Below are positions 2,832 to 64,000 of a DNA stretch of 64,000 nt, one piece after another. Source of the stretch: Escherichia phage FL20; the sequence record PP400781; one strand, written 5' to 3'. Numbering within the stretch: the stretch's first letter is position 1; every line of letters begins with the position of its first letter. A model generated the notes under the pieces. That model was given only the letters and a program-made list of their open reading frames with translations, ran no database searches and was not told the DNA's origin. A program made the translations under genes and the position numbers.

Positions 2832-2939
2832 CTCTCATAGTTTCACGCTGTTGTTTCAACATTTTTTCGTGGTTTGCTAATTCTATACCTTGTAATAGCA
2901 TAACCAGTGCAATTTTCAATGATTCATCATCTTTCATAA

Positions 2940-40486: not shown

Positions 40487-40643
40487 ACTTAATGATACTT
40501 ACTTTACCAGATCCGTGACAATGAGCGCAACACCCATCACCACGCAATCCTGTTCCGTTACAGTGTTTACACTTCTTCAACGGTAAAGCCATTATAGCAA
40601 ATAAAGCAATAATGAACACCGAAACTAAATTCTCAATAATCAT
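40487..40643 (-). CDS. Micro-protein with TM helix and DnaJ-type double CxxCxGxG zinc finger (52 aa)
   Basis: Not in the ORF track. Translation MIIENLVSVFIIALFAIMALPLKKCKHCNGTGLRGDGCCAHCHGSGKVSIIK read from the minus strand. Confidence 0.4.
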
Positions 40644-40902
40644 AAATCGCCCTCAGTTCTTTATAGCCTCCAATGTGCTCGTTGTCAATGAATATCTGGG
40701 GGTATACAAACCGGAGGCTCTTTGAGTTTAGCCTCCCCGCCAGTTCTTCAATCATATCACGGTCGGGAATAATGTCAACCCCGACCTGCTTGAATACTGG
40801 TTTAAGTGTATACGGAATACCCAGATCATCCAGTAGCTTCATTGCACTAATACAACCATAACAATGATAAGCCTCTTTCGGTATACCGTATATCTCGATC
40901 AT
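40633..40902 (-). CDS. nrdH: Glutaredoxin-like protein (NrdH-like)
   Basis: 89 aa; CYGC redox motif near N-terminus and YPQIFIDNEHIGGYKEL glutaredoxin signature; located next to nrdG as T4 nrdH. Confidence 0.55.
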   Translation of the reverse strand: MIEIYGIPKEAYHCYGCISAMKLLDDLGIPYTLKPVFKQVGVDIIPDRDMIEELAGRLNSKSLRFVYPQIFIDNEHIGGYKELRAIYDY

Positions 40903-41399
40903 TTCTCAGCCTTTAATCTTTCTAGTTCTTCTTCCAGTTCCTTGATCCGTTGGTCACGTTCAAAGTCACGCTGTAACTTAGTGGCGAATACTCGTTTAAA
41001 CTGATTGTAATCATCGATTTTAAACACTTCTTCTTCGCCATAGCGACGCACAGAAACTTCGTAGTTATTGAAGAATTGTTGCATCATTGCTTCGGATGAT
41101 AGCTCTGCTGATACCACTTTAAAATATTGATCTTCTGTAGGCGAAAACCAATTACAAGCATAAAGATAAACCTTTTCATTGTCTGGACACTGGTAAGCCT
41201 TACCATCGATTTCAATCACAGAAACATACTCAGGTATACTAGATGAATCAATAGCTAAGACTTTAAACGCACGGTCCCCGATAAACTCGGAGATCACACG
41301 ATTCGCATCACTGGTTGCAAATGCTTTACGCGCTTGTTCGTTTTTCCACTGATAGGTCATACCAACAACAAACATATTACCAACCTCGCTCTTTACCAA
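40899..41399 (-). CDS. WEVGK-module family protein (1 module plus coiled-coil tail)
   Basis: 166 aa; GMTYQWKNEQARKAF ... FKVLAIDS ... IEIDGKAY module and C-terminal RIKELEEELERLKAEK; paralog of seven neighbouring genes. Confidence 0.5.
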   Translation of the reverse strand: MVKSEVGNMFVVGMTYQWKNEQARKAFATSDANRVISEFIGDRAFKVLAIDSSSIPEYVSVIEIDGKAYQCPDNEKVYLYACNWFSPTEDQYFKVVSAELSSEAMMQQFFNNYEVSVRRYGEEEVFKIDDYNQFKRVFATKLQRDFERDQRIKELEEELERLKAEK

Positions 41400-42201
41400 T
41401 CAAAAATTCAACTTCACGACGTTTAATGTCTTCTTGAAGGTCTTTAATCTTCTGGCGATCTTGCATGATTTCATCCATCTTGTCAAGTGCCGCAATGAAA
41501 TCATCGAAACGTTCAAAGGTTTTACCTTCATTTGCTTCGCCAAATTTAACCATTGTCAGGCCGTAACGACTACTAAACAGACGTTTCAACTGTCCAACGA
41601 TCTTAGAATCAGTGGTTATAACTTCCAATTCTTCTACTTCACGAAAGAATTTTCTATCAGAATCAATAAACCAGCTAGTTCCTTTATGGTCTCTATCTTC
41701 GGTTGCGCTCATTAGAGTATGGTCTTTACCATCAATTTCAATTACATCAATTTGCCCACATGGACGAACATTTTTAACAGTAAAAGGTCTATAATTTATT
41801 GCTCGTGCAATAACATAATTAAGGTTAGATACGTTTTCAGCATAATGGCAGAAGTCGGTCATAGCATTCACATCTTTCCAAGTATAAGTTTTACCAACTT
41901 CCCATTTCTGGGGAACTTCTTCAACTTCACGAAAGAATTTTCTATCAAATGGACTAAAGAAATATGTTGCAGTCCAAATGTCTTTTCCTGTAGCAGTTTT
42001 CGCCGTATGATAAACACCGTCTAGCTCTATTGCATTAATCCAACCGTTACCCTCGATCTCGATGATGGTAAATGGCTTGTCACCAATAGCTGCACTAATA
42101 TCGCTGTTAAGTGGAGAAAGAACACCTTCTCCGTTAGTAATAAACTCAGTTTTAGCGTTTTCATCTTTCCAGGTGTAAGTTTTACCAATTTCCCATTTCA
42201 T
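41377..42201 (-). CDS. WEVGK-module family protein (2 tandem modules plus tail)
   Basis: 274 aa; module 1 starts MKWEIGKTYTWKDENAKTEF, module 2 starts QKWEVGKTYTWKDVNAMTDF; each ends with DRKFFREVEE. Confidence 0.55.
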   Translation of the reverse strand: MKWEIGKTYTWKDENAKTEFITNGEGVLSPLNSDISAAIGDKPFTIIEIEGNGWINAIELDGVYHTAKTATGKDIWTATYFFSPFDRKFFREVEEVPQKWEVGKTYTWKDVNAMTDFCHYAENVSNLNYVIARAINYRPFTVKNVRPCGQIDVIEIDGKDHTLMSATEDRDHKGTSWFIDSDRKFFREVEELEVITTDSKIVGQLKRLFSSRYGLTMVKFGEANEGKTFERFDDFIAALDKMDEIMQDRQKIKDLQEDIKRREVEFLIGKERGW

Positions 42202-42213
42202 AATATATTCCCC

Positions 42214-42714
42214 TTAACCGATTTTATCAAGTTCGTTTAATGCTTTCTCTGCTTCCTGTATAGCTTGCACTCTTTCCGGCATTTTGTCAAGAAAATCTTT
42301 CAACTCTTCAAAACTGGAGATATGACGCAAGGCATTAGCACCGATAGCCGCATGTGATTTGCATTCAAAGCGAATTTTATAATTATCCATCGCCAATTTG
42401 AGAAGGTCTATTAGATCATATTCATGACCAGGCAATAAAACTTCTTTGAAGCACGCTCGGTCGCCATCGGAAAACCATATATTATCACCAACATCGATAG
42501 AACTAATATAATCCCCTTCGTGATTATAGATTGAACGTACATTACCCCAACGGTCTACCGTAGCGACAGTAAATGGTTTATCTAGATATGTAAACACACC
42601 ATCAATATTAGGTTTTTGTTCGTAACGCCAACAATCACGCAAAATGCGCTTTTCGTCCTCACCAACCAACTTATATGTCTTCCCTTCTTCCCATTTCATA
42701 ATATCATCTCTCAT
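42214..42714 (-). CDS. WEVGK-module family protein (1 module plus tail)
   Basis: 166 aa; MKWEEGKTYKL ... DGDRACFKEV; helical tail. Confidence 0.5.
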   Translation of the reverse strand: MRDDIMKWEEGKTYKLVGEDEKRILRDCWRYEQKPNIDGVFTYLDKPFTVATVDRWGNVRSIYNHEGDYISSIDVGDNIWFSDGDRACFKEVLLPGHEYDLIDLLKLAMDNYKIRFECKSHAAIGANALRHISSFEELKDFLDKMPERVQAIQEAEKALNELDKIG

Positions 42715-43240
42715 TTTTGATACGTGATTCTAATTGGATCATACGGTCGCGCGTTTGCTTGTATTCGCGGATAGCACCGATCCGGCTAGGCATACCATCC
42801 AGTACGCTCTTAATACCTTCTATGGTAGTAATTTTGGCAATGCTATTATGTAACCCCATCTTATCGATCAACTGAATGTCGTAGGCTTCCATAAGCAGAC
42901 CCAGACGTTCTAAAGTTAGGTCTTCTTCTTTTTCTTCCGATTCTGGAATCTTAGGTTCAATAGTAACTTCGGTAAAGAAACGACGCTCACCCGACCAAAA
43001 CCACACACCGGAACAGCCAATAGGGGATTCTTTTAACGTCATAGAGTCGAAATTACTACCAATAATAGTAATTTCTCTAACATCACCATCATCGTCAAGG
43101 TCTTCTACCCTAAACGGGCGACCAGCCAACAAGTCAACAATACATCTGTTAATAGACGACGAAAATTTAGTCAGTTCGGCTTTCGACGCTTCGCATTCAA
43201 TCTTGTAAGTTTTACCAACTTCCCATTCCATAATAATCAC
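42704..43240 (-). CDS. WEVGK-module family protein (1 module plus tail)
   Basis: 178 aa; MEWEVGKTYKI ... SGERRFFTEV; helical tail. Confidence 0.5.
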   Translation of the reverse strand: MIIMEWEVGKTYKIECEASKAELTKFSSSINRCIVDLLAGRPFRVEDLDDDGDVREITIIGSNFDSMTLKESPIGCSGVWFWSGERRFFTEVTIEPKIPESEEKEEDLTLERLGLLMEAYDIQLIDKMGLHNSIAKITTIEGIKSVLDGMPSRIGAIREYKQTRDRMIQLESRIKNER

Positions 43241-43241
43241 C

Positions 43242-43745
43242 TCAAATAATTTTCACTGGAATACTATTAACAATCTTGTATTGTACTTGATTGTCAGACC
43301 CCCGCCACGGCTTCTTCGTTGGCATATCTTTAATATAACGCCCATCGATGAACATGTCAACTGATTCTACAATTTTTCTTTGCTCATCATTCAATTGGTC
43401 AAGGGTATAACCAGACCATAGCCAAATATCTTTATTTGGCATCCATGATTTTACTTCATCGATGATCCGCTGTACACCCTTTAAATTGCGTTTATACAAT
43501 GGATCGCCACCTAAGAATGTTAGCCCCTGAATAAAATCAGGTCTAAGCAGATCCAGAATCAATCCCATTGTATCATCGGTGAATGGTTCCCCGTTCTTAG
43601 GATTGAGTAGGCTAGCATTAAAGCAACCATCACATGCGTGTGAACATCCGGTAACGTAAAGGGAGACTCTCACTCCCTCACCGTTCACCATATCACAATC
43701 TTTAATATCGGCATAGCGTAGCTTGCCGTATGTATCAGAACTCAT
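43242..43745 (-). CDS. nrdG: Anaerobic ribonucleotide reductase activating protein NrdG (radical SAM)
   Basis: 167 aa from ATG 43743-43745; DCDMVNGEGVRVSLYVTGCSHACDGCFN matches the NrdG CxxxCxxC-type cluster region; GGDP motif. Confidence 0.85.
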   Translation of the reverse strand: MSSDTYGKLRYADIKDCDMVNGEGVRVSLYVTGCSHACDGCFNASLLNPKNGEPFTDDTMGLILDLLRPDFIQGLTFLGGDPLYKRNLKGVQRIIDEVKSWMPNKDIWLWSGYTLDQLNDEQRKIVESVDMFIDGRYIKDMPTKKPWRGSDNQVQYKIVNSIPVKII

Positions 43746-43887
43746 ATTCAATTACCCCGAACTCGTTTACAATCTGCGCTTTATAGTAACCACCGCGAGA
43801 TGCTAATAGATAAGCTGGGCTTAGGTATTCGTATTCACGGATTTCTACTTGTGCGTTTTCAGTTTCCCAAATCAGTAAAGTCCACAT
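43735..43887 (-). CDS. Hypothetical micro-protein (50 aa)
   Basis: ATG at 43885-43887 with AGGAGAATCAAAT leader; the track extension runs through the promoter. Confidence 0.35.
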   Translation of the reverse strand: MWTLLIWETENAQVEIREYEYLSPAYLLASRGGYYKAQIVNEFGVIEYEF

Positions 43888-43930
43888 ATTTGATTCTCCT
43901 GTAAAGTTGTATCTCGTCTTGATGAATATA

Positions 43931-43958
43931 GTATAGGGGATCGCGAGATCCCCGTCAA
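43931..43958 (-). promoter_or_regulatory. Sigma70-type early promoter with GATC palindromic spacer
   Basis: TTGAC(G)-gggatctcgcgatcccc-TATACT. Confidence 0.5.
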
Positions 43959-43962
43959 GCAT

Positions 43963-44511
43963 TTATTTTAAATTTTTTCGAATGTATTCAGACCATTCCT
44001 TCCCTGTCATTTCGGACCCATTCTGGAAACTGAAATATTCATACGGCATCGAGTCAAGATAAAACAGGATCATACATCGCGCCATATAATACCAATCACG
44101 ATTAAAGTAAACTACGTTATCGCCAGTACCATCAGCACCTTTATCATAACCATCGCGGGTACGGGCGACCCATTGAATAGTATCATTTTTCTCACGGATC
44201 GTAACAGGTTCCCAATATCCAGCACATCCAGCATGACCACACGAACAAGTCAGGAAATATTGACCTTTTGCTTTGTTGTCATCCCATTCACGATGGATTG
44301 GTTCGATCTCGTGAAACAGTGCTAAGCAATCATGATTATGCAACACTGGCTTACCATCAATCAATGCATGGAATGTATACAAACGACCAGTAGACAAATA
44401 GATATCCTCACGCTCAACCAGTTCAATAGCAATCTTTTTAGCTCGTTCTTTGTGTCGTTGTGCTTTACGCTTACGGTTTAATGATTTCATATTCACCTCA
44501 CACATTATCAA
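43963..44511 (-). CDS. Hypothetical protein (Cys/His-containing)
   Basis: 182-aa ORF between nrdD and nrdG; contains CSCGHAGCAGYW. Confidence 0.45.
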   Translation of the reverse strand: MIMCEVNMKSLNRKRKAQRHKERAKKIAIELVEREDIYLSTGRLYTFHALIDGKPVLHNHDCLALFHEIEPIHREWDDNKAKGQYFLTCSCGHAGCAGYWEPVTIREKNDTIQWVARTRDGYDKGADGTGDNVVYFNRDWYYMARCMILFYLDSMPYEYFSFQNGSEMTGKEWSEYIRKNLK

Positions 44512-45053
44512 AGGTCGCGATATAGTACATTATGAAAATGAGAACTTGCATTACCAATATTGTAGATAATAAATTCTTCATCCGGCGCTTGCGCTACAAA
44601 TTGAGTATGAGCAACCGCCACAACCTTAAAAATACGATCCGTGATCTTGTGTTTAATTTCGGCTCCTACTTCCATAGGAACATATTCATGTGTTTCTGTT
44701 TCAGTCGCAAAACAGCCATCTTCTTCATAAGCACGAACAAATCGATCGCAATCAGTACGCTTAACAAATTCAAGAGTATACAATTCTCGTGAATTGTCGG
44801 TATAGACTAATACAGAATTATTCTGATAGCGAATCACATACAGGTTATTATCATCGTCAATTACGCAAAAGCTACGGATTTGTGTTCCTTCGCCTTTACT
44901 CCAGCAGATATTAACCACAGTTCCTCTAATAAAAAAACTTTCCTTTAAATTAAAACTAGCCAATGTGCTAGCGTGCATTTTAACAACAACACCATCGCCA
45001 ATTTCCAGTTTACGAAGTTTAACTTCTTTGTTCAGTACACAAAACATCATCAT
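44508..45053 (-). CDS. Hypothetical protein
   Basis: 181-aa ORF; promoter TTGACA-16-TATAAT at about 45084-45110. Confidence 0.45.
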   Translation of the reverse strand: MMMFCVLNKEVKLRKLEIGDGVVVKMHASTLASFNLKESFFIRGTVVNICWSKGEGTQIRSFCVIDDDNNLYVIRYQNNSVLVYTDNSRELYTLEFVKRTDCDRFVRAYEEDGCFATETETHEYVPMEVGAEIKHKITDRIFKVVAVAHTQFVAQAPDEEFIIYNIGNASSHFHNVLYRDL

Positions 45054-45121
45054 GTTGTCCTCTCGTTGTTTTCGATGTGAGCATTATACATTAGCTAATC
45101 ATGTTGTCAACACCCCAAAAC

Positions 45122-45148
45122 GAAAAAGCCGACCCTTTCGGATCGGCT
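45122..45148 (-). terminator. Rho-independent terminator downstream of nrdD
   Basis: Minus strand: agccgatccgaaagggtcggct hairpin then tttttcg; same hairpin module as at 57735-57762. Confidence 0.55.
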
Positions 45149-45153
45149 GAAAT

Positions 45154-47016
45154 TTACATGTGCTTAACGCGGTTTACCATCTCGGAGTGTTTCCCGTGGT
45201 TAAATGGACGCAGATCAACAGATCCAAGATATCCACTAACGCGACGGATAACATTCATCTTTTCCAGATTGTCATTGCCGCAATCAGGACAAACAAAACC
45301 AGACTCGGTTGCTCTCATTTCCTTAGTAGATCCGCATACATGACATACATCAGAAGGAGTATTAACACCGAAGTAGTGCAATTTATCCATTGCATAGTCT
45401 ACTACAGTTTCAAGACCTTTCAGGTTGTTTTTCATGTCTGGGAACTCAACATAAGAGATCATGCCACCGGACGCCAGCCAGTGATAATCTTTCTCAAAGT
45501 CGATTTTCTCAAATGGAGTGACTTTACGGTCTACGTCAAGGTGGAATGAGTTGGTGTACCAGTCTTTATCGGTAGCACCCTTAACAATACCAAATTTCTC
45601 TCTGTCCAGTCGATTAAATCGATAGCAAAGACTCTCGGCTGGCGTACCGTAAAGACTAAACCCAAGTCCGGTTTCGTCCTTCCATTTTTCAGTATAATGA
45701 CGCAAGATCTTAAGAATATGTTTACCGTATCGCTGCGCATCTTCCGAATCAAACGGATGAACACCAAACAGGACGCTCAATACCTCATGTAAACCAATAT
45801 ATCCAAGAGAGATACTAGCGCGACCATCTTTCAACACTTCCAAAATTTCATCGTTTTGATGAATACGGAAAAACGCACCTTCGGTATACAGCACCGGGGC
45901 AACATTGGCTTTAGCCCCTTTTAAAGCGTCTACGCGACTCATGAGCGCATCAAAGCAAATAGGCATACGATTAGCTAGCTCTTGTTCGAATAGCTCAATT
46001 CTGCGCATTACAGACGCTTTACCAGCACGACGAGCGGCAATAAGGGCAATACGCGGAAGATTCAGAGTCACAACACCTAAGTTATTACGTCCGTCTAATA
46101 CTTCTTCGCCTTTCTCATTATGCCACACACCCAGGAAGCTACGACAACCCATCGGGCTAACCGGAACACTAGATCCAGTGATACTACGGTTATTCTTCGC
46201 AGAGATATAATCAGGGTAAAGACGCTTACTAGAACATTCCAATGCAAGTTGCTTAATGTCGTAGTTCGGATCTTCCGGTTTAAGGTTTAATCCTTCTTCT
46301 AAGAACATCACCAGCTTAGGAAACACCGGAGTGATACCATCTTTACCTAAACCTTTAGTTCGAACGTTCAGGATCGCTTTCTGAATCAGTTTTTCTTCCC
46401 AGCTAGTACCCATACCAAAGGTTAAAGTCACAAAAGGAGTTTGACCGTTGGTGGAGAACAAAGTGTTGATTTCATATTCCAACGCTTGATACCCGTCTAA
46501 CGTTTCTTTTTCTGTCTTCTCTTGTGCATAGAGAGTATCAGCTTTGATTCCGTAGGTTTCGGCATCAGCAAGGTGTTTATGATATGTTTTCTTAACATAC
46601 GGTGCTAACACCTGATCGATGTTTGCAATTGTGGTCCCGCCATATTGATGACTTGCCACCTGTGCGATAATTTGAGCGGTTACAGCACAAGCAACGCCGA
46701 TTGATTTCGGACTTTCGATTTGTGCGCTACCCAATTTAAAACCATTCTCTAGCATGTCTTTAAGATTAACAAGACAGCAGTTAGTAAACGGCATAGCGGG
46801 TGCATAATCCATATCATGATAATGAATATCACCGTCTACATGCGCTTTATAGATGTGCTCAGGTAACACGGTTTTAGCAATCTGTTTAGACACAGCACCA
46901 GCAATCAGATCTCGACGTGTCGGGAATGTTCGCGCGTCTTTGTTCGCGTTCTCTTTGCTTACTTCGTTTTCTTTACCCGTTGCGATCTCTGTAATGTCTT
47001 TGATTAGTTTTTCCAT
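45154..47016 (-). CDS. nrdD: Anaerobic ribonucleoside-triphosphate reductase NrdD (class III, glycyl radical), intron-free
   Basis: 620 aa; long identical blocks with T4 NrdD (FTNCCLV, SHQYGGTT, NGQTPFVT, GSSVPVSPMGCRSFL, GVVTLNLPRIAL, TPAE, LCYRF, glycyl radical motif RRVSGYLG); single continuous ORF. Confidence 0.95.
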   Translation of the reverse strand: MEKLIKDITEIATGKENEVSKENANKDARTFPTRRDLIAGAVSKQIAKTVLPEHIYKAHVDGDIHYHDMDYAPAMPFTNCCLVNLKDMLENGFKLGSAQIESPKSIGVACAVTAQIIAQVASHQYGGTTIANIDQVLAPYVKKTYHKHLADAETYGIKADTLYAQEKTEKETLDGYQALEYEINTLFSTNGQTPFVTLTFGMGTSWEEKLIQKAILNVRTKGLGKDGITPVFPKLVMFLEEGLNLKPEDPNYDIKQLALECSSKRLYPDYISAKNNRSITGSSVPVSPMGCRSFLGVWHNEKGEEVLDGRNNLGVVTLNLPRIALIAARRAGKASVMRRIELFEQELANRMPICFDALMSRVDALKGAKANVAPVLYTEGAFFRIHQNDEILEVLKDGRASISLGYIGLHEVLSVLFGVHPFDSEDAQRYGKHILKILRHYTEKWKDETGLGFSLYGTPAESLCYRFNRLDREKFGIVKGATDKDWYTNSFHLDVDRKVTPFEKIDFEKDYHWLASGGMISYVEFPDMKNNLKGLETVVDYAMDKLHYFGVNTPSDVCHVCGSTKEMRATESGFVCPDCGNDNLEKMNVIRRVSGYLGSVDLRPFNHGKHSEMVNRVKHM

Positions 47017-47032
47017 TGTATCACCTATGAAA

Positions 47033-47052
47033 AAGCGGGATTTCTCCCGCTC
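47033..47052 (-). terminator. Hairpin terminator immediately upstream of the nrdD RBS
   Basis: Minus strand: gcgggagaaatcccgc followed by tttttcat, then AGGTGA RBS. Confidence 0.5.
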
Positions 47053-47060
47053 GTTGATAG

Positions 47061-47555
47061 TTATTTTACCAGTTCTGCTAATTCTTTTTCCGCCGCTTCC
47101 AGTTCAGCTTTCAGTTGTTTGATCTCTTGTCGCTTCTTATTAGCGGCTTCCTGCTTACTATTTCGGATAACCTGATCTAGATACAACTCCCAATCCTGAA
47201 TATTTTTGATAATGTAGCCGTCAACGTTCAGAGCTTTAATATTAAGAACTTCTTCCAGCTTACTTAAAGAACGTTGTGTTTCGGGGAAGAAATAGTCATA
47301 TTCACCTCGGTCAAACCAGTATCTTATGCCAGCTTTATCTAAACGACGATGCAATTCATAAAAATCTTTACCATCTTCGACGATGAGTTTGTCTACATCG
47401 CCATTACAGTTAACAGAGACTTTGAATCTAATATTATCAACCCCACCAAAAACATCAATAAGGATAGTTCCGATCGTGTTATCCGCGCTTCCAGTATCCA
47501 TAAAAGATTCTAGTTTTTCTTGATTAGTAACGTACCAAACATCTTGTTTCCACAT
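47061..47555 (-). CDS. WEVGK-module family protein (divergent module plus coiled-coil tail)
   Basis: 164 aa; C-terminal heptad tail KRQEIKQLKAELEAAEKELAELVK. Confidence 0.45.
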   Translation of the reverse strand: MWKQDVWYVTNQEKLESFMDTGSADNTIGTILIDVFGGVDNIRFKVSVNCNGDVDKLIVEDGKDFYELHRRLDKAGIRYWFDRGEYDYFFPETQRSLSKLEEVLNIKALNVDGYIIKNIQDWELYLDQVIRNSKQEAANKKRQEIKQLKAELEAAEKELAELVK

Positions 47556-47584
47556 AATATAATCCTCTCGTTGTTAAGTGGGAG

Positions 47585-47613
47585 TATTATAGCATACTCC
47601 CTTCGCATGTCAA
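47585..47613 (-). promoter_or_regulatory. Sigma70-type early promoter with dyad spacer
   Basis: TTGACA-tgcgaagggagtatgc-TATAAT; arms gggagtat/atactccc. Confidence 0.55.
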
Positions 47614-48788
47614 GCACTAACTTTTTTCTTTACTGCTTTCACCTTCTGGCGAATTGCTCGAATCTCTTCGATCTCTTTTTCAGTCTCTTTAACAATTTCT
47701 TTGCGATTCTGAATATCTGTATCTAGATTCTCATCGAGTTTAGGCAGCATGTCGATCAAGAACTTTTTAAGATCTTTCAGGTTTCGGATAACAGCACCTT
47801 CACCCATTACCGCCACGCCTACACCATCCGGCAGACCACCAAACAGTTTAACCAGTTCAGACAGATGATCATGATCTTCTAGTGCTTCTTCCGGTTCAGA
47901 TGGCAGTTCAACAAAGTAATAACGTTCATCATTGCTGATCAGGTGATACCAGCAAAGCCCGAAAGATTTCGGTGTATATTCTACACCATCAATTTCAACC
48001 GCGTCAACACTTCCATAATCATCTACTTTAGTTACCTTAAATCCTTGTCCCAGCTTTTGAACAATTTCAACAACATGACTTGATACAGTTTCAGCGGTAA
48101 ACCAATATGGCAAATTATGCTGATTTGGCTTGTAGCGTTCACCTACTTTAAATCTCTGACCAGCCGCTTGCATAGCATGAAATTGTTGTTTCGTGATTTC
48201 CGCGAAGTATTCAAATTCGCCACCATCAAACACACAAGCCCATTGATCACAAAAACGATCTGCCTTAACAGTTTCACCTTTCGCGGTGATCATGGTAGCT
48301 GATCCATGCAATTCTTCTTCAACTAAAAAGCCATATTCGACAAAATCAACAAGTTTCATGGCTTCTTTGTGCTCTGGATCATGCTCTCCCCAGAATCGCT
48401 TAAATTCTTGCAAACCTTCTGGGGTAAACGAATAACATTTACCTTTTTCAAAGTAAGTCGGCATTGCATCCTCTTTCTTGTTCATCGCTTCGTATGCCTC
48501 TTTTGAGATACGTTTAAAGAATTTACGCTCATCGTGCATAATCATAGTAGCCCAATAATAAACGATATCCTCAGCGGAATAAACTACATCTCCAGCTTCA
48601 ATAGTAATAACATGACCGTGGTCATCTTTTTCTAATACTTTAAAGCCCTTTTCTACGATTTCAGCAACCCGAATATGACCACGGCGCGAAGCATCGGTCA
48701 GAATAATTGAATAGCGAGAAAAGTCTAGAAACTCATCTTTACCGCCTTCACGGAATGCATAGTAATGACCTTCAAAGAATTTAGCCAT
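47610..48788 (-). CDS. WEVGK-module family protein (3 tandem modules plus tail)
   Basis: 392 aa; three repeats each with a G(E/K)xY core, an IEAGD/VEIDG box and an ERKFF/ERYYF box; Lys/Glu coiled-coil tail. Confidence 0.5.
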   Translation of the reverse strand: MAKFFEGHYYAFREGGKDEFLDFSRYSIILTDASRRGHIRVAEIVEKGFKVLEKDDHGHVITIEAGDVVYSAEDIVYYWATMIMHDERKFFKRISKEAYEAMNKKEDAMPTYFEKGKCYSFTPEGLQEFKRFWGEHDPEHKEAMKLVDFVEYGFLVEEELHGSATMITAKGETVKADRFCDQWACVFDGGEFEYFAEITKQQFHAMQAAGQRFKVGERYKPNQHNLPYWFTAETVSSHVVEIVQKLGQGFKVTKVDDYGSVDAVEIDGVEYTPKSFGLCWYHLISNDERYYFVELPSEPEEALEDHDHLSELVKLFGGLPDGVGVAVMGEGAVIRNLKDLKKFLIDMLPKLDENLDTDIQNRKEIVKETEKEIEEIRAIRQKVKAVKKKVSA

Positions 48789-48819
48789 AATATAATCCTC
48801 TCGTTGTTTAGACGGGAGT

Positions 48820-48848
48820 ATCTTACTACTCCCGTTTCATCATGTCAA
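48820..48848 (-). promoter_or_regulatory. Sigma70-type early promoter with dyad spacer
   Basis: TTGACA-17-TAAGAT; gggagta/tactccc inverted repeat. Confidence 0.55.
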
Positions 48849-49429
48849 GCGTTAAATGACTTTTGGATCTCTTTCAGTTCAGCTACTTTATCGGCGCTGA
48901 ATTTAGCGTAGGCATCATGTCGAATAATTTCACTTTCAAGAAAGGTTTCCAGCCGAGATCTATTTTCAATAAGGAACTCTTTCAGGTCTTCCGCGTTCTT
49001 GATAAAGATTTTATTGTCGGTAATGTCATCTTCAATCGCAAAGGAGATAGAGCGAACTTTACCAAACAAGTTAATCAGATCTTCCAGAGATTCTTCTTTC
49101 TTAACTGGTTTCATTTCTTCAAACTGCTTTTTAGTGATGCGTTTAAAGTATTTGCGCTCGCTTGCATCAATCATGATTGACGCACCCTCATAATCATGAG
49201 TTTCTACCAAATACACTTTACCCATAACATTAACCGTAAGAACTTTAAAGCCCCTGTGAAGCACACCATACAGGAACTTGTTATGTTGTGGGTAGCGTTT
49301 AACAAATTCCTCTGCGGACTCAGCATTACGGAAAGTGTAATAACGACCTCGTTCAAAAACAGCATCATTTGAAGACTTAGACGGATACAATTTATACGTT
49401 TTCTGTACCATAATATAATCCTCTATCAT
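48845..49429 (-). CDS. WEVGK-module family protein (1 module plus tail)
   Basis: 194 aa (true start possibly the internal ATG about 18 nt in); QKTYKL ... SERKYFKRI ... Confidence 0.45.
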   Translation of the reverse strand: MIEDYIMVQKTYKLYPSKSSNDAVFERGRYYTFRNAESAEEFVKRYPQHNKFLYGVLHRGFKVLTVNVMGKVYLVETHDYEGASIMIDASERKYFKRITKKQFEEMKPVKKEESLEDLINLFGKVRSISFAIEDDITDNKIFIKNAEDLKEFLIENRSRLETFLESEIIRHDAYAKFSADKVAELKEIQKSFNA

Positions 49430-49698
49430 TTCACTAATTGAACAGCACGGAACAGAATGCGCTCACACGGAAGCAGCATAAATTCCCAACGCGGATCAAA
49501 GTCTTTAGCGGTGTATGTTTTCCCATCAACCGAGATTTCACTTACATAACCAACAGGTGACACTTTAAGAACAGTAAACCCATTCTTGATGACTTCGTAG
49601 GTATCTTTCACCCCTTCGTATTCATCATCTAAGAAGTCTTTATGTGCTTGCTCAGATTTAAAAACATAGGCCACACCGGATTTAAACATCTTACGCAT
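49426..49698 (-). CDS. WEVGK-module family protein, short (90 aa)
   Basis: ATG at 49696-49698 with AGGAGAATCAACA leader; KSGVAYVFKSEQAHKDF ... ISVDGKTYTAKDFD. Confidence 0.45.
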   Translation of the reverse strand: MRKMFKSGVAYVFKSEQAHKDFLDDEYEGVKDTYEVIKNGFTVLKVSPVGYVSEISVDGKTYTAKDFDPRWEFMLLPCERILFRAVQLVK

Positions 49699-49730
49699 TG
49701 TTGATTCTCCTTCTTGATTAGATGGGAGTA

Positions 49731-49758
49731 TTTTACTACTCCCATTTCTTATTGTCAA
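49731..49758 (-). promoter_or_regulatory. Sigma70-type early promoter with dyad spacer
   Basis: TTGACA-17-TAAAAT; gggagta/tactccc. Confidence 0.5.
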
Positions 49759-50259: not shown

Positions 50260-50541
50260 TTAACCATTAATCTTGTTTTTGACTACAAAGGATCGGAACT
50301 CATCAAAGCCACCGATATAATCACCATTATAGAAAATCTGCGGCAGGGTGGCAATAACTTCTACCCCTGCGCGATCCTGAATATCGGCAATGATAGAATC
50401 AATCTTTACCGGACGACCGTTTTCGTCCACACCATCATTAACCGGAATGTAGATGTAAGGGATCTTACGCGCTTCACAAAGGCGCTTTGCATTCTGGCAA
50501 TACTTACAGTTGTAACCTTCAAAACCAAAAATTTCTACCAT
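50260..50541 (-). CDS. nrdC: Glutaredoxin/thioredoxin NrdC
   Basis: 93 aa from ATG 50539-50541; CKYCQNAKRL active site as in T4 NrdC; GGFDEF glutaredoxin motif. Confidence 0.8.
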   Translation of the reverse strand: MVEIFGFEGYNCKYCQNAKRLCEARKIPYIYIPVNDGVDENGRPVKIDSIIADIQDRAGVEVIATLPQIFYNGDYIGGFDEFRSFVVKNKING

Positions 50542-50549
50542 ATTATACC

Positions 50550-51362
50550 TCAATCTACGTTAGTTACATAAACTTCTTGCGTATCAGAAGACTTACCACC
50601 TGAACGATCTAGGCAATAGGTCTTATTCAACAGGACGCAGTTTAAATCATTCCGCTTGATAAAGTCAAGGAGATGATCATTTACCTTTCCCTTATGATGT
50701 GTGACATTACTGATACCAAACTGAAAACCACGCGCCATAATCGATTCTACCCACTGATAGAATTTAATCTCTTCCTCGTCACTCCAGAACTTATTGTATT
50801 CCGCAGAAGTGATAAGGTACGGCGGGTCCAAATAAACGAAATCACCTGGCAAGATCTCGATCTCGTCATAACGACCAGACGTAAAACTGATTCGACCGTC
50901 TTTGTTTTCTTCCTTAAAATTCAGGACGCGCTCTACCGCGTTTTCGTTAAAAGTCCGTCGGCCAAAATTAGCATTAAATTCTCCCTTCCTGTTATGGCGG
51001 TTAATGTTGCTAAAACTGTGCTGAATCAGAACAAACAGAGATAGCGGATCTGGATTCTCATTATACTTCTTACGGAATGTCATGTAAGCGTCTTTATCAT
51101 CACGAGACAAACCATTTTCGGCAATAATACGCTTGATCGTAGAAACCGGATCAGGACACTCGTCAATCGCTTTGTACGCGTCAATTAAGCGGTGATCATA
51201 GTCATTAGCCAGCACATCCCCTTCGACGTACAGAGACACGCTCAAGCCGCCACAGAAGGCATCAACAAAGCGGTTATAGTGCTTAGGGAAATACTTACTA
51301 ACACCCGGCAATAACTTTTCCTTATTGCCAGTATAGGGAATTAAACCTAATGCTTTCTTCAT
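50550..51362 (-). CDS. dam: DNA adenine methyltransferase Dam (N6-A, GATC)
   Basis: 270 aa; YTGNK, NRFVDAFCGGLSVSL (SAM binding), DPPYLIT catalytic motif, ADYNKFWS-like block; collinear with T4 Dam. Confidence 0.85.
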   Translation of the reverse strand: MKKALGLIPYTGNKEKLLPGVSKYFPKHYNRFVDAFCGGLSVSLYVEGDVLANDYDHRLIDAYKAIDECPDPVSTIKRIIAENGLSRDDKDAYMTFRKKYNENPDPLSLFVLIQHSFSNINRHNRKGEFNANFGRRTFNENAVERVLNFKEENKDGRISFTSGRYDEIEILPGDFVYLDPPYLITSAEYNKFWSDEEEIKFYQWVESIMARGFQFGISNVTHHKGKVNDHLLDFIKRNDLNCVLLNKTYCLDRSGGKSSDTQEVYVTNVD

Positions 51363-53587: not shown

Positions 53588-53629
53588 TTTGATTCTCCTT
53601 AAGAAAGTGTGTTTCGTTTTGATGTGTGT

Positions 53630-53658
53630 AGTATAGGGGATACGTGATCCCCTGTCAA
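53630..53658 (-). promoter_or_regulatory. Sigma70-type early promoter with dyad spacer
   Basis: TTGACA-ggggatcacgtatcccc-CTATAC. Confidence 0.5.
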
Positions 53659-53666
53659 CAACTTTT

Positions 53667-53996
53667 TTATGATTTTAGTGAATTAACCACTACATCAAAA
53701 TGATGTACAGAGTACACCTTATTAAACACATATTCATCGTGTTTAGGAATAGCCCCTAATCGCTCTATTTCGCTCGCTGACACGATAAACCGTTTATCAG
53801 GTGCATTTACCTTATATGCTTCAACAACGCACGGAAAACGCGTTTTAGAGAGTTCGGGATAGTTTTCTGACTCCATCAGGACAATGAATACCCTATTACA
53901 TTGATTGTAGAATCCGGTTTTTGATTTCATCAAGTTTTCTTCTCTGTGAAATTCGTGCAATCTTCCTTTCATGATTTCGTTGGTTCTTGTCTTCAC
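53667..53996 (-). CDS. Hypothetical protein
   Basis: ORF of up to 109 aa; true start probably internal. Confidence 0.35.
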   Translation of the reverse strand: MKTRTNEIMKGRLHEFHREENLMKSKTGFYNQCNRVFIVLMESENYPELSKTRFPCVVEAYKVNAPDKRFIVSASEIERLGAIPKHDEYVFNKVYSVHHFDVVVNSLKS

Positions 53997-54237
53997 AGTT
54001 TACCCACTCAACAAGGTCTTTACCTAACTCGAAAGCCCATTCTCGGTCCTGCTTTACGTTTTGTAGGTATGGACTTTCCGACACTCGACGAAGTGATGTT
54101 GTCGCAACAAGAATGATCCCAGGAATGTTCGGATGTTCCTTTCCATATACAATAGGACGCGAGTCACTATCAATACCTTGTAAGAAGGTGTATCCTGAAT
54201 CACTTAGGATCATATACATTTTCATTTCATCCATCAC
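53896..54237 (-). CDS. Hypothetical protein
   Basis: 113-aa ORF. Confidence 0.35.
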   Translation of the reverse strand: MMDEMKMYMILSDSGYTFLQGIDSDSRPIVYGKEHPNIPGIILVATTSLRRVSESPYLQNVKQDREWAFELGKDLVEWVNCEDKNQRNHERKIARISQRRKLDEIKNRILQSM

Positions 54238-54491
54238 AGTTTCCTCAACCAGTTATTAAAGCGAGTAAACAATGATGATTTTCGTGCTTCTTTTACTTTA
54301 TGTGCACGTAAACCACTGAAACACCATTCATAATCATCACTGAAACATGATTCAACAGGAACACCCGCATTTCGTAGTTCTCTGGTCTTTATCATGAATC
54401 CTTGACATAAGGGGCGACCTTCAACAATGATAGGAAGTTTAACTTTTTCCATGAAAGTATACCCAGCACGGTCAATAATTTCAATCTTCAT
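54234..54491 (-). CDS. Small paralog family member A
   Basis: 85 aa; MKIEIIDRAGYTFMEKVKLPIIVEGRP ... resembles 54510..54713 and 56188..56463. Confidence 0.45.
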   Translation of the reverse strand: MKIEIIDRAGYTFMEKVKLPIIVEGRPLCQGFMIKTRELRNAGVPVESCFSDDYEWCFSGLRAHKVKEARKSSLFTRFNNWLRKL

Positions 54492-54509
54492 AATATAATC
54501 CTCAATTGA

Positions 54510-54713
54510 TTACACTTCCCAGGCTTCTTTGCTAAGAAAACACCATTTATACTCAGGAGAATAACCTTTAATCGGTACTCCCGCTTTTTGTAATTCCTGC
54601 GTTTCAACAACATAATCATGCCCATATGGTCGGCCTTCCACGATGATAGGAAGTTTAACACCTTTCATGAAAGAATATCCACCATCGTCAAAAATTTCAA
54701 TTTTAATTTTCAT
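54510..54713 (-). CDS. Small paralog family member B
   Basis: 67 aa; MKIKIEIFDDGGYSFMKGVKLPIIVEGRP ... Confidence 0.45.
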   Translation of the reverse strand: MKIKIEIFDDGGYSFMKGVKLPIIVEGRPYGHDYVVETQELQKAGVPIKGYSPEYKWCFLSKEAWEV

Positions 54714-54736
54714 TTTACATTATCTCCATAGTTCTT

Positions 54737-54958
54737 TCAATCAATATCAATTTCACCAGCACGAACATCTAGGATAAGATGCGGTAGGTGTATGCAATTT
54801 TCCCAACCAATGCGCTTCATTTCTTCTACGGTAACGTAAGCCCACCCGTTCGCTGTAATAAAGTCTACTTCAACCTTGAGAGGAAAGCAAGACTTTTCTA
54901 TGTCTTCGAATCCGATAATGTGTTTTGTCGTTGAATATGGAATATATCCGGTGATCAT
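54737..54958 (-). CDS. Hypothetical small protein
   Basis: 73-aa ORF. Confidence 0.4.
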   Translation of the reverse strand: MITGYIPYSTTKHIIGFEDIEKSCFPLKVEVDFITANGWAYVTVEEMKRIGWENCIHLPHLILDVRAGEIDID

Positions 54959-55389
54959 TTTGTGATCTCCTTATACTCAACACACCATAAGCGGGTAGCC
55001 CATGATAAACGCTCATAACGCTGGCAGAAATCGGACCATAGATATTGTGTACCGTCTTGCATGGTTGAAATATGCGTTTTCTCACCTACTTTCACGAAAG
55101 AAGTATTCGATTTTGTGATCTCGACCGGAGTATATCCGAAAGCTGGTTCCAAGTCAACATCTGAACTAAATGCTAATTTAACAGAATTTGTTTTTCTGAC
55201 CGCTGTCCGGTTTCCTTCTGGGTATAGCACAGCAGGGTTAGCGCCTAAGCGGATAAACTCAGTGTTTTTAATAAACAGAATATCATGATAACCGTCATAT
55301 TCCGACACTTCCATAGTAACAGGAAAATCGACATGTGCTAAACCTGGTAGATCTCGCATATCATGAAAGGTCGCCATCAACTTTTTCAT
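54955..55389 (-). CDS. Hypothetical protein
   Basis: 144-aa ORF; its C-terminal third is duplicated in 55453..55644. Confidence 0.4.
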   Translation of the reverse strand: MKKLMATFHDMRDLPGLAHVDFPVTMEVSEYDGYHDILFIKNTEFIRLGANPAVLYPEGNRTAVRKTNSVKLAFSSDVDLEPAFGYTPVEITKSNTSFVKVGEKTHISTMQDGTQYLWSDFCQRYERLSWATRLWCVEYKEITK

Positions 55390-55452
55390 TCTATATTCCT
55401 CACTCTTCTGTAATTACTTCATATTCAATTTTCCATACATCAATCGCCCAGC

Positions 55453-55644
55453 TTAAAAGCTCATACGATTTACAGAAAGATGACCAAATATACTGTTTCC
55501 GTGCATCGTTGTTATGTGTGTATGCTCACCAACTTCAACGAAAGACATATTTGACTTTGTGATAACTATAGGAATGCGACCGAAAGGTGGCGGTATTACT
55601 GATTCGTTGGTCTTCATTCTATATTCCTCACTCTTCTGTTTCAT
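55453..55644 (-). CDS. Hypothetical small protein, partial duplicate of the 54955..55389 C-terminus
   Basis: 63 aa; VITKSNMSFVEVGEHTHITTM versus VEITKSNTSFVKVGEKTHISTM. Confidence 0.35.
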   Translation of the reverse strand: MKQKSEEYRMKTNESVIPPPFGRIPIVITKSNMSFVEVGEHTHITTMHGNSIFGHLSVNRMSF

Positions 55645-55864
55645 TTCTTTTATATGGTACTATAACAGGATTAATACAGCAAGCACCAATTACGTTATGA
55701 GCACCACAATTTAAGCATTTATAATCATGGAACTTATTAAGGAATCGCCCGAACTCATAACCGACTAACGCCGCGTGTACTTGAGTCTCGATCTCATCCA
55801 TATCAGCCAATGTTTTAACCTTCATAATATAATCCTCAAATACTGGTTTTGCGAAGATGGTCAT
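55628..55864 (-). CDS. Hypothetical small protein (Cys-containing)
   Basis: 78-aa ORF. Confidence 0.35.
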   Translation of the reverse strand: MTIFAKPVFEDYIMKVKTLADMDEIETQVHAALVGYEFGRFLNKFHDYKCLNCGAHNVIGACCINPVIVPYKRNETEE

Positions 55865-56126
55865 TACATGCTTTTAATGCATCAGTCGAGGTGTCATAGC
55901 GAGTATTATCATAGCACCAGTAACCATCTGTCAACTGATAAATTAATCCATCCTTTTTAGCTTCGATGAAAGACAATTCTTTGAAAGTTTCTACTTTCTT
56001 TGCTGATACTCCACGGTCACGGCGTTTATAGAGTTTAGCTAAAACGCGTTCAGCTTGTTCCTCTTTATCGCCAGACAGATCCCAGATGACGTTTCTGATA
56101 TGCTTGATTAATTGTTCAGTGGTCAT
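55836..56126 (-). CDS. Hypothetical protein
   Basis: 96-aa ORF with AGGAGAATCAAAT leader. Confidence 0.4.
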   Translation of the reverse strand: MTTEQLIKHIRNVIWDLSGDKEEQAERVLAKLYKRRDRGVSAKKVETFKELSFIEAKKDGLIYQLTDGYWCYDNTRYDTSTDALKACNDHLRKTSI

Positions 56127-56156
56127 ATTTGATTCTCCTTAGTTGGTATGGTTATC

Positions 56157-56184
56157 ATTATACGGGGATTTCTCCCCGTGTCAA
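56157..56184 (-). promoter_or_regulatory. Sigma70-type early promoter with dyad spacer
   Basis: TTGACA-cggggagaaatccccg-TATAAT. Confidence 0.55.
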
Positions 56185-56187
56185 CAA

Positions 56188-56463
56188 TTAAATGATCTCT
56201 GCTTCACCGTTAAGGAAGAAAGACCATGTTTTGTTAGGATAACGAAGCGCCCATGATTCAGCAGTTTTAACACCAGCTTCGAACAATTGACGGCTGGTTA
56301 CTTTAGCCATACCATCTTCGATGGCAACGTTTTCAATAATCATCGGGTACTTAGCGCCACGCATGAAACCGAAGCCAGCGGAAGATTTGATGATTTTAAC
56401 AGTTGCCATTTTTGATTCTCCTAGAAAGTGTCGTGTTTCGATGGGTGTATTATGCAATAACAC
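56188..56463 (-). CDS. Small paralog family member C
   Basis: Internal start MATVKIIKSSAGFGFMRGAKYPMIIEN...; AGGAGAATCAAAA leader. Confidence 0.4.
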   Translation of the reverse strand: MLLHNTPIETRHFLGESKMATVKIIKSSAGFGFMRGAKYPMIIENVAIEDGMAKVTSRQLFEAGVKTAESWALRYPNKTWSFFLNGEAEII

Positions 56464-56495
56464 CGGATCGCTGTCAACACTTTCTAAGAAAAATT

Positions 56496-57661: not shown

Positions 57662-57734
57662 TTTGATTCTCCTTTGTTGTCGATGTGTGCATTATGCTAT
57701 ACCCTATTCCGGTTGTCAACACCTAAAAACGAAA

Positions 57735-57989: not shown

Positions 57990-58388
57990 TTAAGCCAATC
58001 GAGTGAGTTTATAAATTGTTTTAAAGCATAGAGCTTTGATATCGTCTAAAACGCTCTGTAACGAGCTATCAACATCATTATAAATCTCACTAGCCATTTG
58101 CGTTAACTCTTGCAAATAGGCAATTTCGCTCATCTCCTTGCGGACGACCAACGTTGGCTGATAACGACCAGTGATCCCAATATTGGTTTCAGTGAAATCA
58201 TCAACCAATTCTTGCATTTCAAGATAGAACTCTTCTAGAGCCTTATGTTTTGCATAAGATCCAGGACCAGTTACTCCAAAATGCGCAGAATGCATATAAG
58301 TAACACTCATCAGACATTCACCGATAAAGCGGTCAACTTTATTAGCTTTCCCCTCTTCGGACGTCTTTCGAAAATCACTGAATTTCAT
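57990..58388 (-). CDS. Hypothetical protein (132 aa)
   Basis: ATG at 58386-58388 with GGAGAAT RBS; followed by about 230 nt with no ORF. Confidence 0.4.
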   Translation of the reverse strand: MKFSDFRKTSEEGKANKVDRFIGECLMSVTYMHSAHFGVTGPGSYAKHKALEEFYLEMQELVDDFTETNIGITGRYQPTLVVRKEMSEIAYLQELTQMASEIYNDVDSSLQSVLDDIKALCFKTIYKLTRLA

Positions 58389-58677
58389 GTTCTCTATTCT
58401 CCATATTATGCAACATAACAAACTGTTGTGCGGCATATTCCCCCATAATAAAACACTGCTTAGAATCCATACATTTACTACGAGCATACATCTTCATAAT
58501 ATGGGCATGAAATTTCTGGCTGGTTTCAATGGAAGGAGATATTTTGTTTACATATACTATCATTGCACCGTCGAAATAATCAGTAAAGTCACCAGTTGGA
58601 TCATATTGATCAGCACTGACACTTCCGACCGCAGTCAAGCATATTGCCGCTGTTAGAGTTTTACGAATAAATGACAT
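58375..58677 (-). CDS. Secreted/periplasmic small protein
   Basis: 100 aa; signal peptide MSFIRKTLTAAICLTAVGSVSA. Confidence 0.45.
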   Translation of the reverse strand: MSFIRKTLTAAICLTAVGSVSADQYDPTGDFTDYFDGAMIVYVNKISPSIETSQKFHAHIMKMYARSKCMDSKQCFIMGEYAAQQFVMLHNMENREHEIQ

Positions 58678-62363: not shown

Positions 62364-62624
62364 CTACTTTTTCAAGATTTTTTTGATTGCATTCCAAAGA
62401 CCTTTATTTCCAGGTTGTTTTGGTTCTTCGATCAGTGTCCATGTTCGACCGTCTAAGTGTGCACAATTTTTAAGGCAAATAAAAATCTGATGTCCATTAT
62501 CAGCACGGATATAACCACTATTCGCAAATCTTTCATGTGGTGTATATTCATACAGTGTATTAGGTGTAATATACTTGCGGTTACTATAAGGTGTCATCAC
62601 ATACATCATGGTACTAACTCCCAA
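62364..62624 (-). CDS. Hypothetical small protein, paralog of 62606..62800
   Basis: 86 aa; shared core GYI..D.G..I.I.L..CAHLDGRTW.LIEEP. Confidence 0.4.
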   Translation of the reverse strand: MGVSTMMYVMTPYSNRKYITPNTLYEYTPHERFANSGYIRADNGHQIFICLKNCAHLDGRTWTLIEEPKQPGNKGLWNAIKKILKK

Positions 62625-62800
62625 CGGTCACCGCGAAGATGAGCACATCCACCATCAAGAAGGATCGTAATACGAACACCCGCATCATCTTCAATATACC
62701 CGATAGTCGGTGGATGTTCGTCGTCTCGTGTCGGGTTAAAATCATACATCTTTCCAGGCGTAATATCTTGTCCTTTATTGCTATTGGTATAAACTTGCAT
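62606..62800 (-). CDS. Hypothetical small protein, paralog of 62364..62624
   Basis: 64 aa; GYIEDDAGVRITILLDGGCAHLRGDRWELV. Confidence 0.4.
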   Translation of the reverse strand: MQVYTNSNKGQDITPGKMYDFNPTRDDEHPPTIGYIEDDAGVRITILLDGGCAHLRGDRWELVP

Positions 62801-63538: not shown

Positions 63539-64000
63539 TTAAACGTATTCAGCAACAACATTATGTTTAAAATTACCGCTCCTTTTTGGATTTGGATTTT
63601 TCAATCGACTATGTATTAAATTTTTGTTGTATCCGGTTGCTTTAGACGCTTCGCCAATACTTTGATAAACAACACCATTAACACGAATCGGACGAGACTT
63701 ATTAAACAGTTGATTCAATCCGGCATCATATGCATGGTTTTGGTTTTCTTGCCTCGTTGCGATCTCAAGATTCCAAACACAATTACAAGATTTTACCCCA
63801 CTTTTATGATTAATTTCAAGACCTTCACAATCACCTATAAAGTGTTCAGCAACTAGTCTATGAATATAGCGATATTTCTTACTTTCCCCATCATGCAAGC
63901 ATACATTATAATAACCATCACCAGCGCGTTTAGGTCGGAGTAGTTTACCTTTAACACGTTTTATAGTAGGGAACTCACCAAATTGATTTCTCTGGATAAA
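63539..64000 (-). mobile_element. HNH homing endonuclease gene, 5' end beyond window
   Basis: The frame stays open upstream of the track ATG to the window edge (...RPKRAGDGYYNVCLHDGESKKYRYIHRLVAEHFIG...EINHKSGVKSCNCVWNLEIATRQENQNH); HNH core plus C-terminal NUMOD-like HTH. Confidence 0.65.

Follow-up and report, generated by a model that had tools for sequence, protein, structure and literature searches.

Within a 64,000-nucleotide stretch of DNA from Escherichia phage FL20 (sequence record PP400781; hereafter, the window), a run of small genes on the minus strand includes several that resemble one another, which raises the question of how such a cluster was assembled and how it varies today. 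The initial annotation, made from the sequence alone, described three small paralogs between positions 54234 and 56463 together with a gene whose C-terminal part recurs in its neighbor, and it read both as signs of ongoing local duplication and divergence. Our analysis upholds duplication and divergence as the processes that built the cluster, but not the view that local duplication is ongoing or recent, as the copies are old and the supposed partial copy is not a fresh one. The cluster appears to have been built by old duplication and domain fusion, while its present-day variation consists of the presence or absence of gene cassettes and of hybrids formed at short repeats. We hold this account of architecture and recombination with good confidence, a judgment that excludes the function of the encoded proteins.

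The source phage is a Krischvirus (RB49-like T4-type coliphage), and the 4.1-kb stretch around the array shares 94-98% DNA identity with 58 Krischvirus coliphage records, among which all counts of presence and absence given below were made. Every gene between 52 and 58 kb of the window lies on the minus strand. Upstream of the array are homologs of rI (58375..58677; Antiholin) and rI.-1 (DUF5856), and downstream is an nrdC-like glutaredoxin gene (50260..50553, minus strand), all three recognized by Pfam matches. Thus, the array stretch corresponds to the rI–nrdC variable region, which belongs to the "hyperplastic regions" reported from RB49 and phi1 (PMC2839356). The flanking layout agrees with the annotation of RB49 and GEC-3S, from which, together with tblastn, the gene correspondences used here were taken, and the genes flanking the array are 93-100% identical across the five genomes compared. 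Nine closely packed same-strand genes lie between two early-promoter/stem-loop elements (PeSLs), a promoter at 56184-56157 and a second element at 53658-53630. Since overlaps or tight spacing link the genes from 56126 down to 53667, these probably form one early, translationally coupled unit.

The three paralogs, which we call A (54234..54491, minus strand, 85 amino acids; RB49 ORF073c), B (54510..54713, minus strand, 67 amino acids; ORF074c), and C (56188..56409, minus strand, 73 amino acids; ORF080c), were readily recovered when all 178 minus-strand open reading frames (ORFs) of the window were compared with one another by BLASTP. A and B share 51.5% identity over 66 residues (E=3e-22) and A and C share 31% over 58 residues (E=9e-5), while B and C match at E=2e-3; overall, C is 28-31% identical to A and B. 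In addition, all three match the hidden Markov model (HMM) of phrog_7345 over its full length (A, E=6e-39, positions 1-66 of 66; B, E=8e-31; C, E=5e-34). The coordinates of C required revision, as its start had been placed at GTG 56463. We reject that start because the longer ORF would traverse the gene's own promoter and because all relatives annotate a gene of 222 nucleotides, which begins at ATG 56409 behind the ribosome-binding site AGGAG. In a rough neighbor-joining tree, a single Krischvirus-specific clade with 52-55% mutual identity unites A, its alternative allele A', and B, while C is as distant from them as are members from other phages. Similarity at the DNA level, which the initial annotation had expected in a self-comparison of 53.6-57.7 kb, was likewise found: self-BLASTN of 53600-57700 gave four off-diagonal matches of 41-73 bits, compared to a top off-diagonal score of 34.6 bits in 50 shuffles. 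The strongest (73 bits) joins the 5' 80 nucleotides of A (54412..54491) to the 5' end of B (54628-54707) at 80% identity, and two further ones, of 58 and 50 bits, concern the genes discussed below. The weakest (41 bits) joins the translation-start region of A (54479..54505) to that of the ORF077c ortholog (55813..55839), which are identical at 25 of 27 positions (TTGAGGATTATATTATGAAG...) and constitute another possible junction repeat for in-frame shuffling.

Three copies proved to be an undercount of the family. An exhaustive HMMER search of 1.84 billion representative proteins with an A/B/C-type profile returned ~30 further clusters of 67-87 amino acid proteins plus several two-domain proteins. 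A second profile was then made from these remote homologs only and run on all 394 window ORFs of at least 40 amino acids, of which seven, and no other, were identified as members. B, A, and C scored 100, 89.5, and 61.5 bits, respectively, followed by 53667..53930 (21.8 bits, E=3e-6), 54737..54958 (17.6 bits), residues 17-54 in the N-terminal part of a gene that we call L (16.9 bits), and 53896..54234 (15.6 bits, E=2.6e-4); the next window ORF reached 3.7 bits, and among 7,880 shuffled ORFs the highest score was 7.3 bits. Profile-profile comparison by hhalign assigned the four weaker members probabilities of 84-94.5%. These are the RB49 ORF071c ortholog and last gene of the array (53667..53930, minus strand; phrog_17411; 93%), the ORF072c ortholog (53896..54234, minus strand; phrog_16316; 92% over 61 columns), the ORF075c ortholog (54737..54958, minus strand; phrog_15979; 84%), and L (94.5%). 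The ORF072c ortholog has a barrel-like N-terminal part, with GYTF and EWAF motifs in the aligned span, followed by a charged C-terminal extension. As a separate observation, a profile of A, B, and C alone had been too weak to establish the wider family, for which the remote homologs were required. The superfamily motif reads GGY.F(M/L)..v.FP(v/i)vVE...V...EL.r.G...(Y.W.F). From the profile and hhalign results, the six contiguous genes at 53667..55389 together with C share one phage-specific domain of ~60 residues, the fold of which is seen only in the model of A. AlphaFold2, run on the alignment of A, returned a small barrel of five to six strands, together with a short helix and a C-terminal helix (predicted local distance difference test score, pLDDT, of 85), so A is predicted to be a small SH3-like beta-barrel, a class that includes SH3, KOW, Tudor, and the C-terminal domain of retroviral integrase; the C-terminal helix is basic and, in the model, specific to A.

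PHROGs splits the seven window genes over five families (7345, 17411, 16316, 15979, and 16117), which the remote homologs help to connect, as they bridge phrog_7345 to phrog_13367, 15322, 20482, and 17411. One remote two-domain protein (P0035), for example, has a second domain that matches phrog_17411, the family of 53667..53930. A tblastn search with the family consensus matched 215 phage records, among them rV5-like coliphages, Moon- and Merlin-type T4-like phages, and several podophages, and in every one of these records the family genes are annotated as hypothetical. Judging from the gene order of metagenomic contigs, similar arrays occupy the same rI–nrdC variable region in other T4-like phages. 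One pair of T4-like contigs carries eight genes with ten domains between tk-rI-rI.-1 and dam-glutaredoxin, and a second pair carries four genes with six domains. The T4-like metagenomic contigs L008 and L009 (168-169 kb) have ten barrel-domain copies; in them, rI.-1 is followed by a gene for a 708-residue immunoglobulin-like protein, and a Tad2-like gene lies next to dam and glutaredoxin. The array DNA of L008 had no match among cultured phages. The syntenic 40 kb of phage T4 yielded no family member, its top match, mobD.5, scoring a non-significant 4.9 bits.

The partial duplication noted initially concerns L (54955..55389, minus strand, 144 amino acids; RB49 ORF076c; phrog_16117) and the ORF upstream of it. 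L consists of the N-terminal family domain (~residues 14-60) and a different C-terminal domain (~84-144), of which residues 89-142 match phrog_10407 (E=2e-26). The recurrence of its C-terminus in 55453..55644 was borne out both in protein (residues 80-116, 54% identity over 37 residues, E=2e-10) and in DNA (54998-55119 versus 55446-55563, 71% over 122 nucleotides, 58 bits). The second ORF, however, does not start at 55644; it starts at ATG 55617, behind the site GAGGAA, and represents the first portion of a standalone gene for the same domain, which we call S (55400..55617, minus strand), that is frameshifted in FL20. Compared to RB49, GEC-3S, and MIZ4, the window contains 228 extra bases between the ORF077c ortholog and L, and these constitute the S insert. 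S is intact in nine records, where it is a 219-nucleotide gene for 72 amino acids with its own ribosome-binding site, 97-99.6% identity, and a TGA stop corresponding to 55400-55402. FL20 has three A residues at 55496-55498, where G2494 has four, and the run is also one shorter than in ECD7; apart from this single missing A, FL20 S is 99.5% identical in DNA to the intact 219-nucleotide gene of G2494. As a result, S reads as 54 amino acids (55453..55617) ending in out-of-frame residues, a product identical to P0074 deposited for Escherichia phage FL20, while the rest of the gene can be read in another frame as KQYIWSSFCKSYELLSWAIDVWKIEYEVITEE, homologous to the L C-terminus. The in-frame part of S matches phrog_10407 at E=9e-5, and the DNA identity between S and the C-terminal domain of L is 71-72%.

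The S insert is bounded by a perfect direct repeat of 27 nucleotides (27/27 identical, 50 bits), hereafter J, of which genomes without S have a single copy. On the coding strand J reads ACAGAAGAGTGAGGAATATAGAATGAA; the copy at 55385..55411 (minus strand) spans the last codons and stop of S, a ribosome-binding site, and the ATG of L, and the copy at 55613..55639 (minus strand) spans the last codons and stop of the ORF077c ortholog, a ribosome-binding site, and the ATG of S. Perfect flanks of this length next to 28% internal divergence (0.72^27, or ~1e-4) would not be expected had S diverged in place as a copy of L. Standalone S-type homologs of 58-72 amino acids are also found on distant phage-like contigs, within arrays of small ORFs, and the homologs P0075-P0082 share the motifs ITKSNxSFVxVGE ... 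WSxFC ... SW ... EYE. Because the domain exists on its own in such distant contigs, an origin of L by fusion is more plausible than an origin of S as a piece copied from L. On sequence grounds, therefore, L is best read as a fusion of a barrel domain and an S-type domain, and S as a diverged homolog stacked beside it rather than a fresh local duplicate. The neighboring ORF077c ortholog (55628..55825, minus strand, 65 amino acids; phrog_15013) has a C-x2-C ... CC pattern (KCLNCGAHNVIGACC) that suggests a small zinc-binding protein; a longer call for this gene from 55864 probably does not use the true start.

The initial annotation had proposed a comparison with related phages for presence and absence, and among the 58 records the cassettes are indeed variably present. 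A occurs in all 58 (51 of the window type and seven of the A' type at 55-66% identity), C in 57 (94.5-100% identity), and the barrel domain of L in 55, while B, which has two allele classes, is found in 28-29 and S in only nine, leaving 49 without it. The remaining variants are S/L hybrids, of which there are three. Each copy's orthologs are 94-100% identical across the 58 genomes, and every genome examined retains an S-type domain as L, S, or a hybrid. The hybrids are found in G37-3, G5211, and phiS, where a single 72-residue gene replaces both S and L. In G37-3, it consists of the first ~28 nucleotides of S joined to nucleotides 245-435 of L, the L part being 99.5% identical to that of FL20, and the crossover falls within the near-identical CCA(C/G)CTTTCGG at the start of the shared domain, such that the barrel domain of L is deleted. 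The homologous DNA in the window (54998..55119 of L and 55446-55563 of S) is the substrate for such a hybrid. A metagenomic homolog, P0072, represents an independent in-frame deletion that also removes the barrel domain of L. Likewise, ECD7 lacks B and has instead a single gene composed of the ORF075c/B junction and a B-type 5' end (ATGAAAATTGAAATTATTGA) followed by A, the substrate for which corresponds to the 80% identical 5' ends of A and B. Two metagenomic chimeras seem to record larger deletions between family members and their neighbors: P0027 begins with 54 residues from the N-terminus of the ORF084c ortholog and continues as the C-terminal half of B, which indicates a deletion of ~3 kb, and in P0023 the first 45 residues of C are followed by the tail of ORF075c. 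It should also be noted that the A'-type gene of phiS (~1930-1970 of L004) begins with ATA rather than ATG, its annotated start being an internal methionine, and this gene may be inactivated.

C differs from the other members in its setting, as its sequence context indicates a cassette of one gene flanked on both sides by early-promoter elements. Minus-strand promoters were scored by their match to a 12-position sigma-70 consensus. The element downstream of C (56157..56184, minus strand) is of the PeSL type, with TTGACA, the stem-loop CGGGGA-GAAA-TCCCCG, and TATAAT (12/12), and is likely the promoter for the same-strand gene run from 56126 down to 53667. Upstream of C is a predicted sigma-70-type promoter without a strong stem (56449..56477, minus strand, 11/12), and a second PeSL-type element closes the array (53630..53658, minus strand; TTGACA, GGGGAT-CACGT-ATCCCC, TATACT; 11/12). 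The window elements fit the published description of PeSLs as a consensus sigma-70 promoter with a stem-loop beside or within it, followed by a ribosome-binding site and start codon (PMC2839356). The phiS genome has no C; there, the promoter element that otherwise precedes C continues into the ORF078c ortholog, with the junction inside the shared ribosome-binding segment AGGAGAATCAA, and a single promoter element is left at the empty site. In RB49-type genomes, this point is occupied by the adhesin gene g38 and terminators of its own. RB49, GEC-3S, and ECD7 have g38 displaced into the variable region beside C, as has been reported for RB49 (PMC3157838), whereas the corresponding slot in FL20 (~56127-56187) contains the promoter element only. 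The FL20 gp38 adhesin gene (449..1228, plus strand), which is of the T2/T6 type with glycine-rich motifs and 68% identical to RB49 gp38, occupies its canonical position between gene 37 and the holin gene (1565..2221).

The junctions found in relatives suggest that the array varies by homologous or microhomology recombination at short repeats of three kinds. One could be the conserved 5' ends of paralogs, with B and A giving rise to the single gene of ECD7 and S and L to the 72-residue hybrid. Junctions of stop codon, ribosome-binding site, and ATG, such as J around S, would be another, and the ribosome-binding segment shared by promoter elements, as at the C-less junction of phiS, would be the third. 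Several considerations weigh against this account and against the family on which it builds. The four additional members score at just 15-22 bits, which is significant only for a window-sized search, and their orthologs are near-identical and hence yield thin profiles. The AlphaFold2 model of L has a pLDDT of 42.6, so the barrel fold stays modeled for A alone. Pfam, NCBIfam, and PDB sequence searches returned nothing for any gene of the region, and nothing specific was found in the literature on the PHROG identifiers, the RB49 ORF names, or Krischvirus gene duplication. The direction of the events, deletion versus insertion, is a parsimony inference. Lastly, two of the changes seen in FL20 may not be biological: the frameshift in S could be a sequencing error, as could the GGA to TGA change at 54737..54739 in the ORF075c ortholog, which, if a real nonsense mutation, removes the last nine codons (by alignment with MIZ4, RB49, phiS, and G2494) and abolishes the ATGA overlap with B, the next gene downstream.

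Could the cluster nevertheless be the product of ongoing tandem duplication with divergence in place, S being a recent partial copy of the 3' end of L and A and B a recent tandem pair? The copies are adjacent and on the same strand, similarity is still detectable in their DNA, and A, A', and B form a lineage-specific clade, in keeping with such a history. The degree of divergence speaks otherwise: protein identity is 52% between A and B and 28-31% between C and either of them, and S and L are 72% identical in DNA, while orthologs are 94-100% identical throughout the genus. The copies are thus old, and none of the genomes examined contains near-identical ones. S in particular has its own N-terminus and stop context, lies between perfect 27-nucleotide repeats despite its 28% internal divergence, and has standalone homologs in distant phage-like contigs. 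We regard ongoing duplication in place as distinctly improbable. Only slightly better are the prospects of S being a functionless remnant, with its similarity to L the decaying debris of an old rearrangement. The frameshift and truncated 54-residue product in FL20 and the absence of S from 49 of the 58 records agree with this idea, which is countered by the intact, highly conserved 219-nucleotide ORF and ribosome-binding site in nine records, by retention of the residues conserved in distant standalone homologs (ITKSN.SFV.VGE, WS.FC, SW, and EYE), and by the presence of at least one S-type domain in every genome examined. That the similarities reflect chance or composition, or that the 228-nucleotide S segment is an assembly artifact, can be considered refuted. 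Short AT-rich genes with naturally similar ribosome-binding regions might invite this suspicion, which the BLAST and HMM statistics and shuffle controls exclude, and the S segment is found in nine independently sequenced genomes. Thus, old duplication and fusion followed by cassette exchange at short repeats remains our favored account of the locus.

The function of the family is a separate matter, for which our suggestions are correspondingly more tentative. Foldseek comparison of the A model with the PDB returned no significant match, and among viral models it returned only small uncharacterized phage proteins; membership in the SH3, KOW, or Tudor families found no support in Pfam profiles and no strong structural match. 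The family proteins are soluble and of mixed charge, with B, the ORF075c ortholog, and L being acidic (isoelectric points of 5.2-6.1). The gene context in Citrobacter phage Moon, bounded by gene 32 and frd, and that in a Proteus podophage consist only of strings of small hypothetical early genes and give no hint of function. As small soluble early proteins without catalytic signatures, they might bind host macromolecules for host takeover or counter-defence, which we put forward as a possibility somewhat short of an even chance. The main rival is that these barrel proteins are regulators that bind nucleic acids, as KOW, Tudor, and integrase C-terminal domains do, and modulate transcription or translation in the phage or the host, rather than inhibiting host defence proteins. 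Given the acidity of three of them, the weak and generic nature of the fold matches, and the dispensability of individual members in natural isolates, we consider this rather unlikely. Host binding therefore remains the suggestion that we carry forward, and it leads to a more speculative proposal of lower probability, in which the array is a diversified early host-binding or counter-defence panel that T4-like phages would expand, contract, and re-assort in the rI–nrdC variable region, with in-frame recombination taking place at the conserved 5' ends of genes and at ribosome-binding-site junctions.

Other features of the window lie outside of this array. A predicted sigma-70 promoter at 57719-57691 (minus strand) is preceded by a terminator, the two spanning 57759-57691. 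A larger, separate paralog family, presumably the one that the initial annotation had counted as its first, occupies 40633..49758 on the minus strand (BLASTP E values of 1e-3 to 2e-13), with internal repeats in some members; its ORFs are 40899..41399, 41377..42201, 42214..42714, 42704..43240, 47610..48788, 48845..49429, and 49426..49758, all on the minus strand. The all-against-all BLASTP search also identified further pairs of paralogous ORFs, all on the minus strand (2502..3272, 62364..62800, 21652..22206 / 63539..63898, and 40633..40902 / 50260..50553), the last pair of which involves the glutaredoxin-like gene.

The gain, loss, or fusion of such genes at short repeats is ordinary for T4-type phage genomes, and the closest known system is the PeSL-mediated modular shuffling that RB49 and phi1 show in their hyperplastic regions (Arbiol et al. 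2010, PMC2839356; PMC4122927). The FL20 locus belongs to the same phage genus and the same type of region, and C conforms to the model as a one-gene cassette between two elements, with a single element kept in the C-less phiS. Most events at this locus differ from it, however, in that they use paralog 5' ends or the 27-nucleotide junction rather than whole PeSLs, and they yield in-frame hybrids and precise gene stacking. With respect to classification, A, B, and C are full-length members of phrog_7345, which, like phrog_13367, phrog_15322, and phrog_17411, is listed as "unknown function" in PHROGs; five families kept separate there are joined here into one superfamily. The new details are modest, namely a seven-member domain family, its recurrent arrays, and in-frame events at junction repeats, with the rest being typical of T4-type variable regions.

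For annotation, five "unknown" PHROG families can be united as a widespread phage domain family, with members in T4-like, rV5-like, and podovirus genomes, that is arrayed in a defined variable region, and for the FL20 genome itself, a frameshift and a premature stop are flagged and two start codons corrected. For mechanism, the locus provides base-level cases of small phage genes being stacked, fused, and deleted in frame at short repeats, which extends the PeSL model. The natural losses of B, C, S, and the barrel domain of L, set against the S-type domain kept by every genome examined, also offer a convenient point of departure for screening early phage genes for function. Large DNA viruses are known for multigene families that behave as "gene accordions", as in the amplification of poxvirus K3L. 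Both systems have tandem arrays of diversified small genes, of host interaction in the poxvirus case, with copy number shifting via repeat recombination, but the FL20 array has no recent amplification of identical copies, as its copies are old and each is conserved. If the proteins do bind host targets, the diversified array would amount to a panel of binding specificities. Should the diversified-panel reading hold, the array would parallel, in bacteriophages, the multigene accordion families found in large DNA viruses of eukaryotes, and L and the hybrids would represent the natural coupling and uncoupling of its domains.

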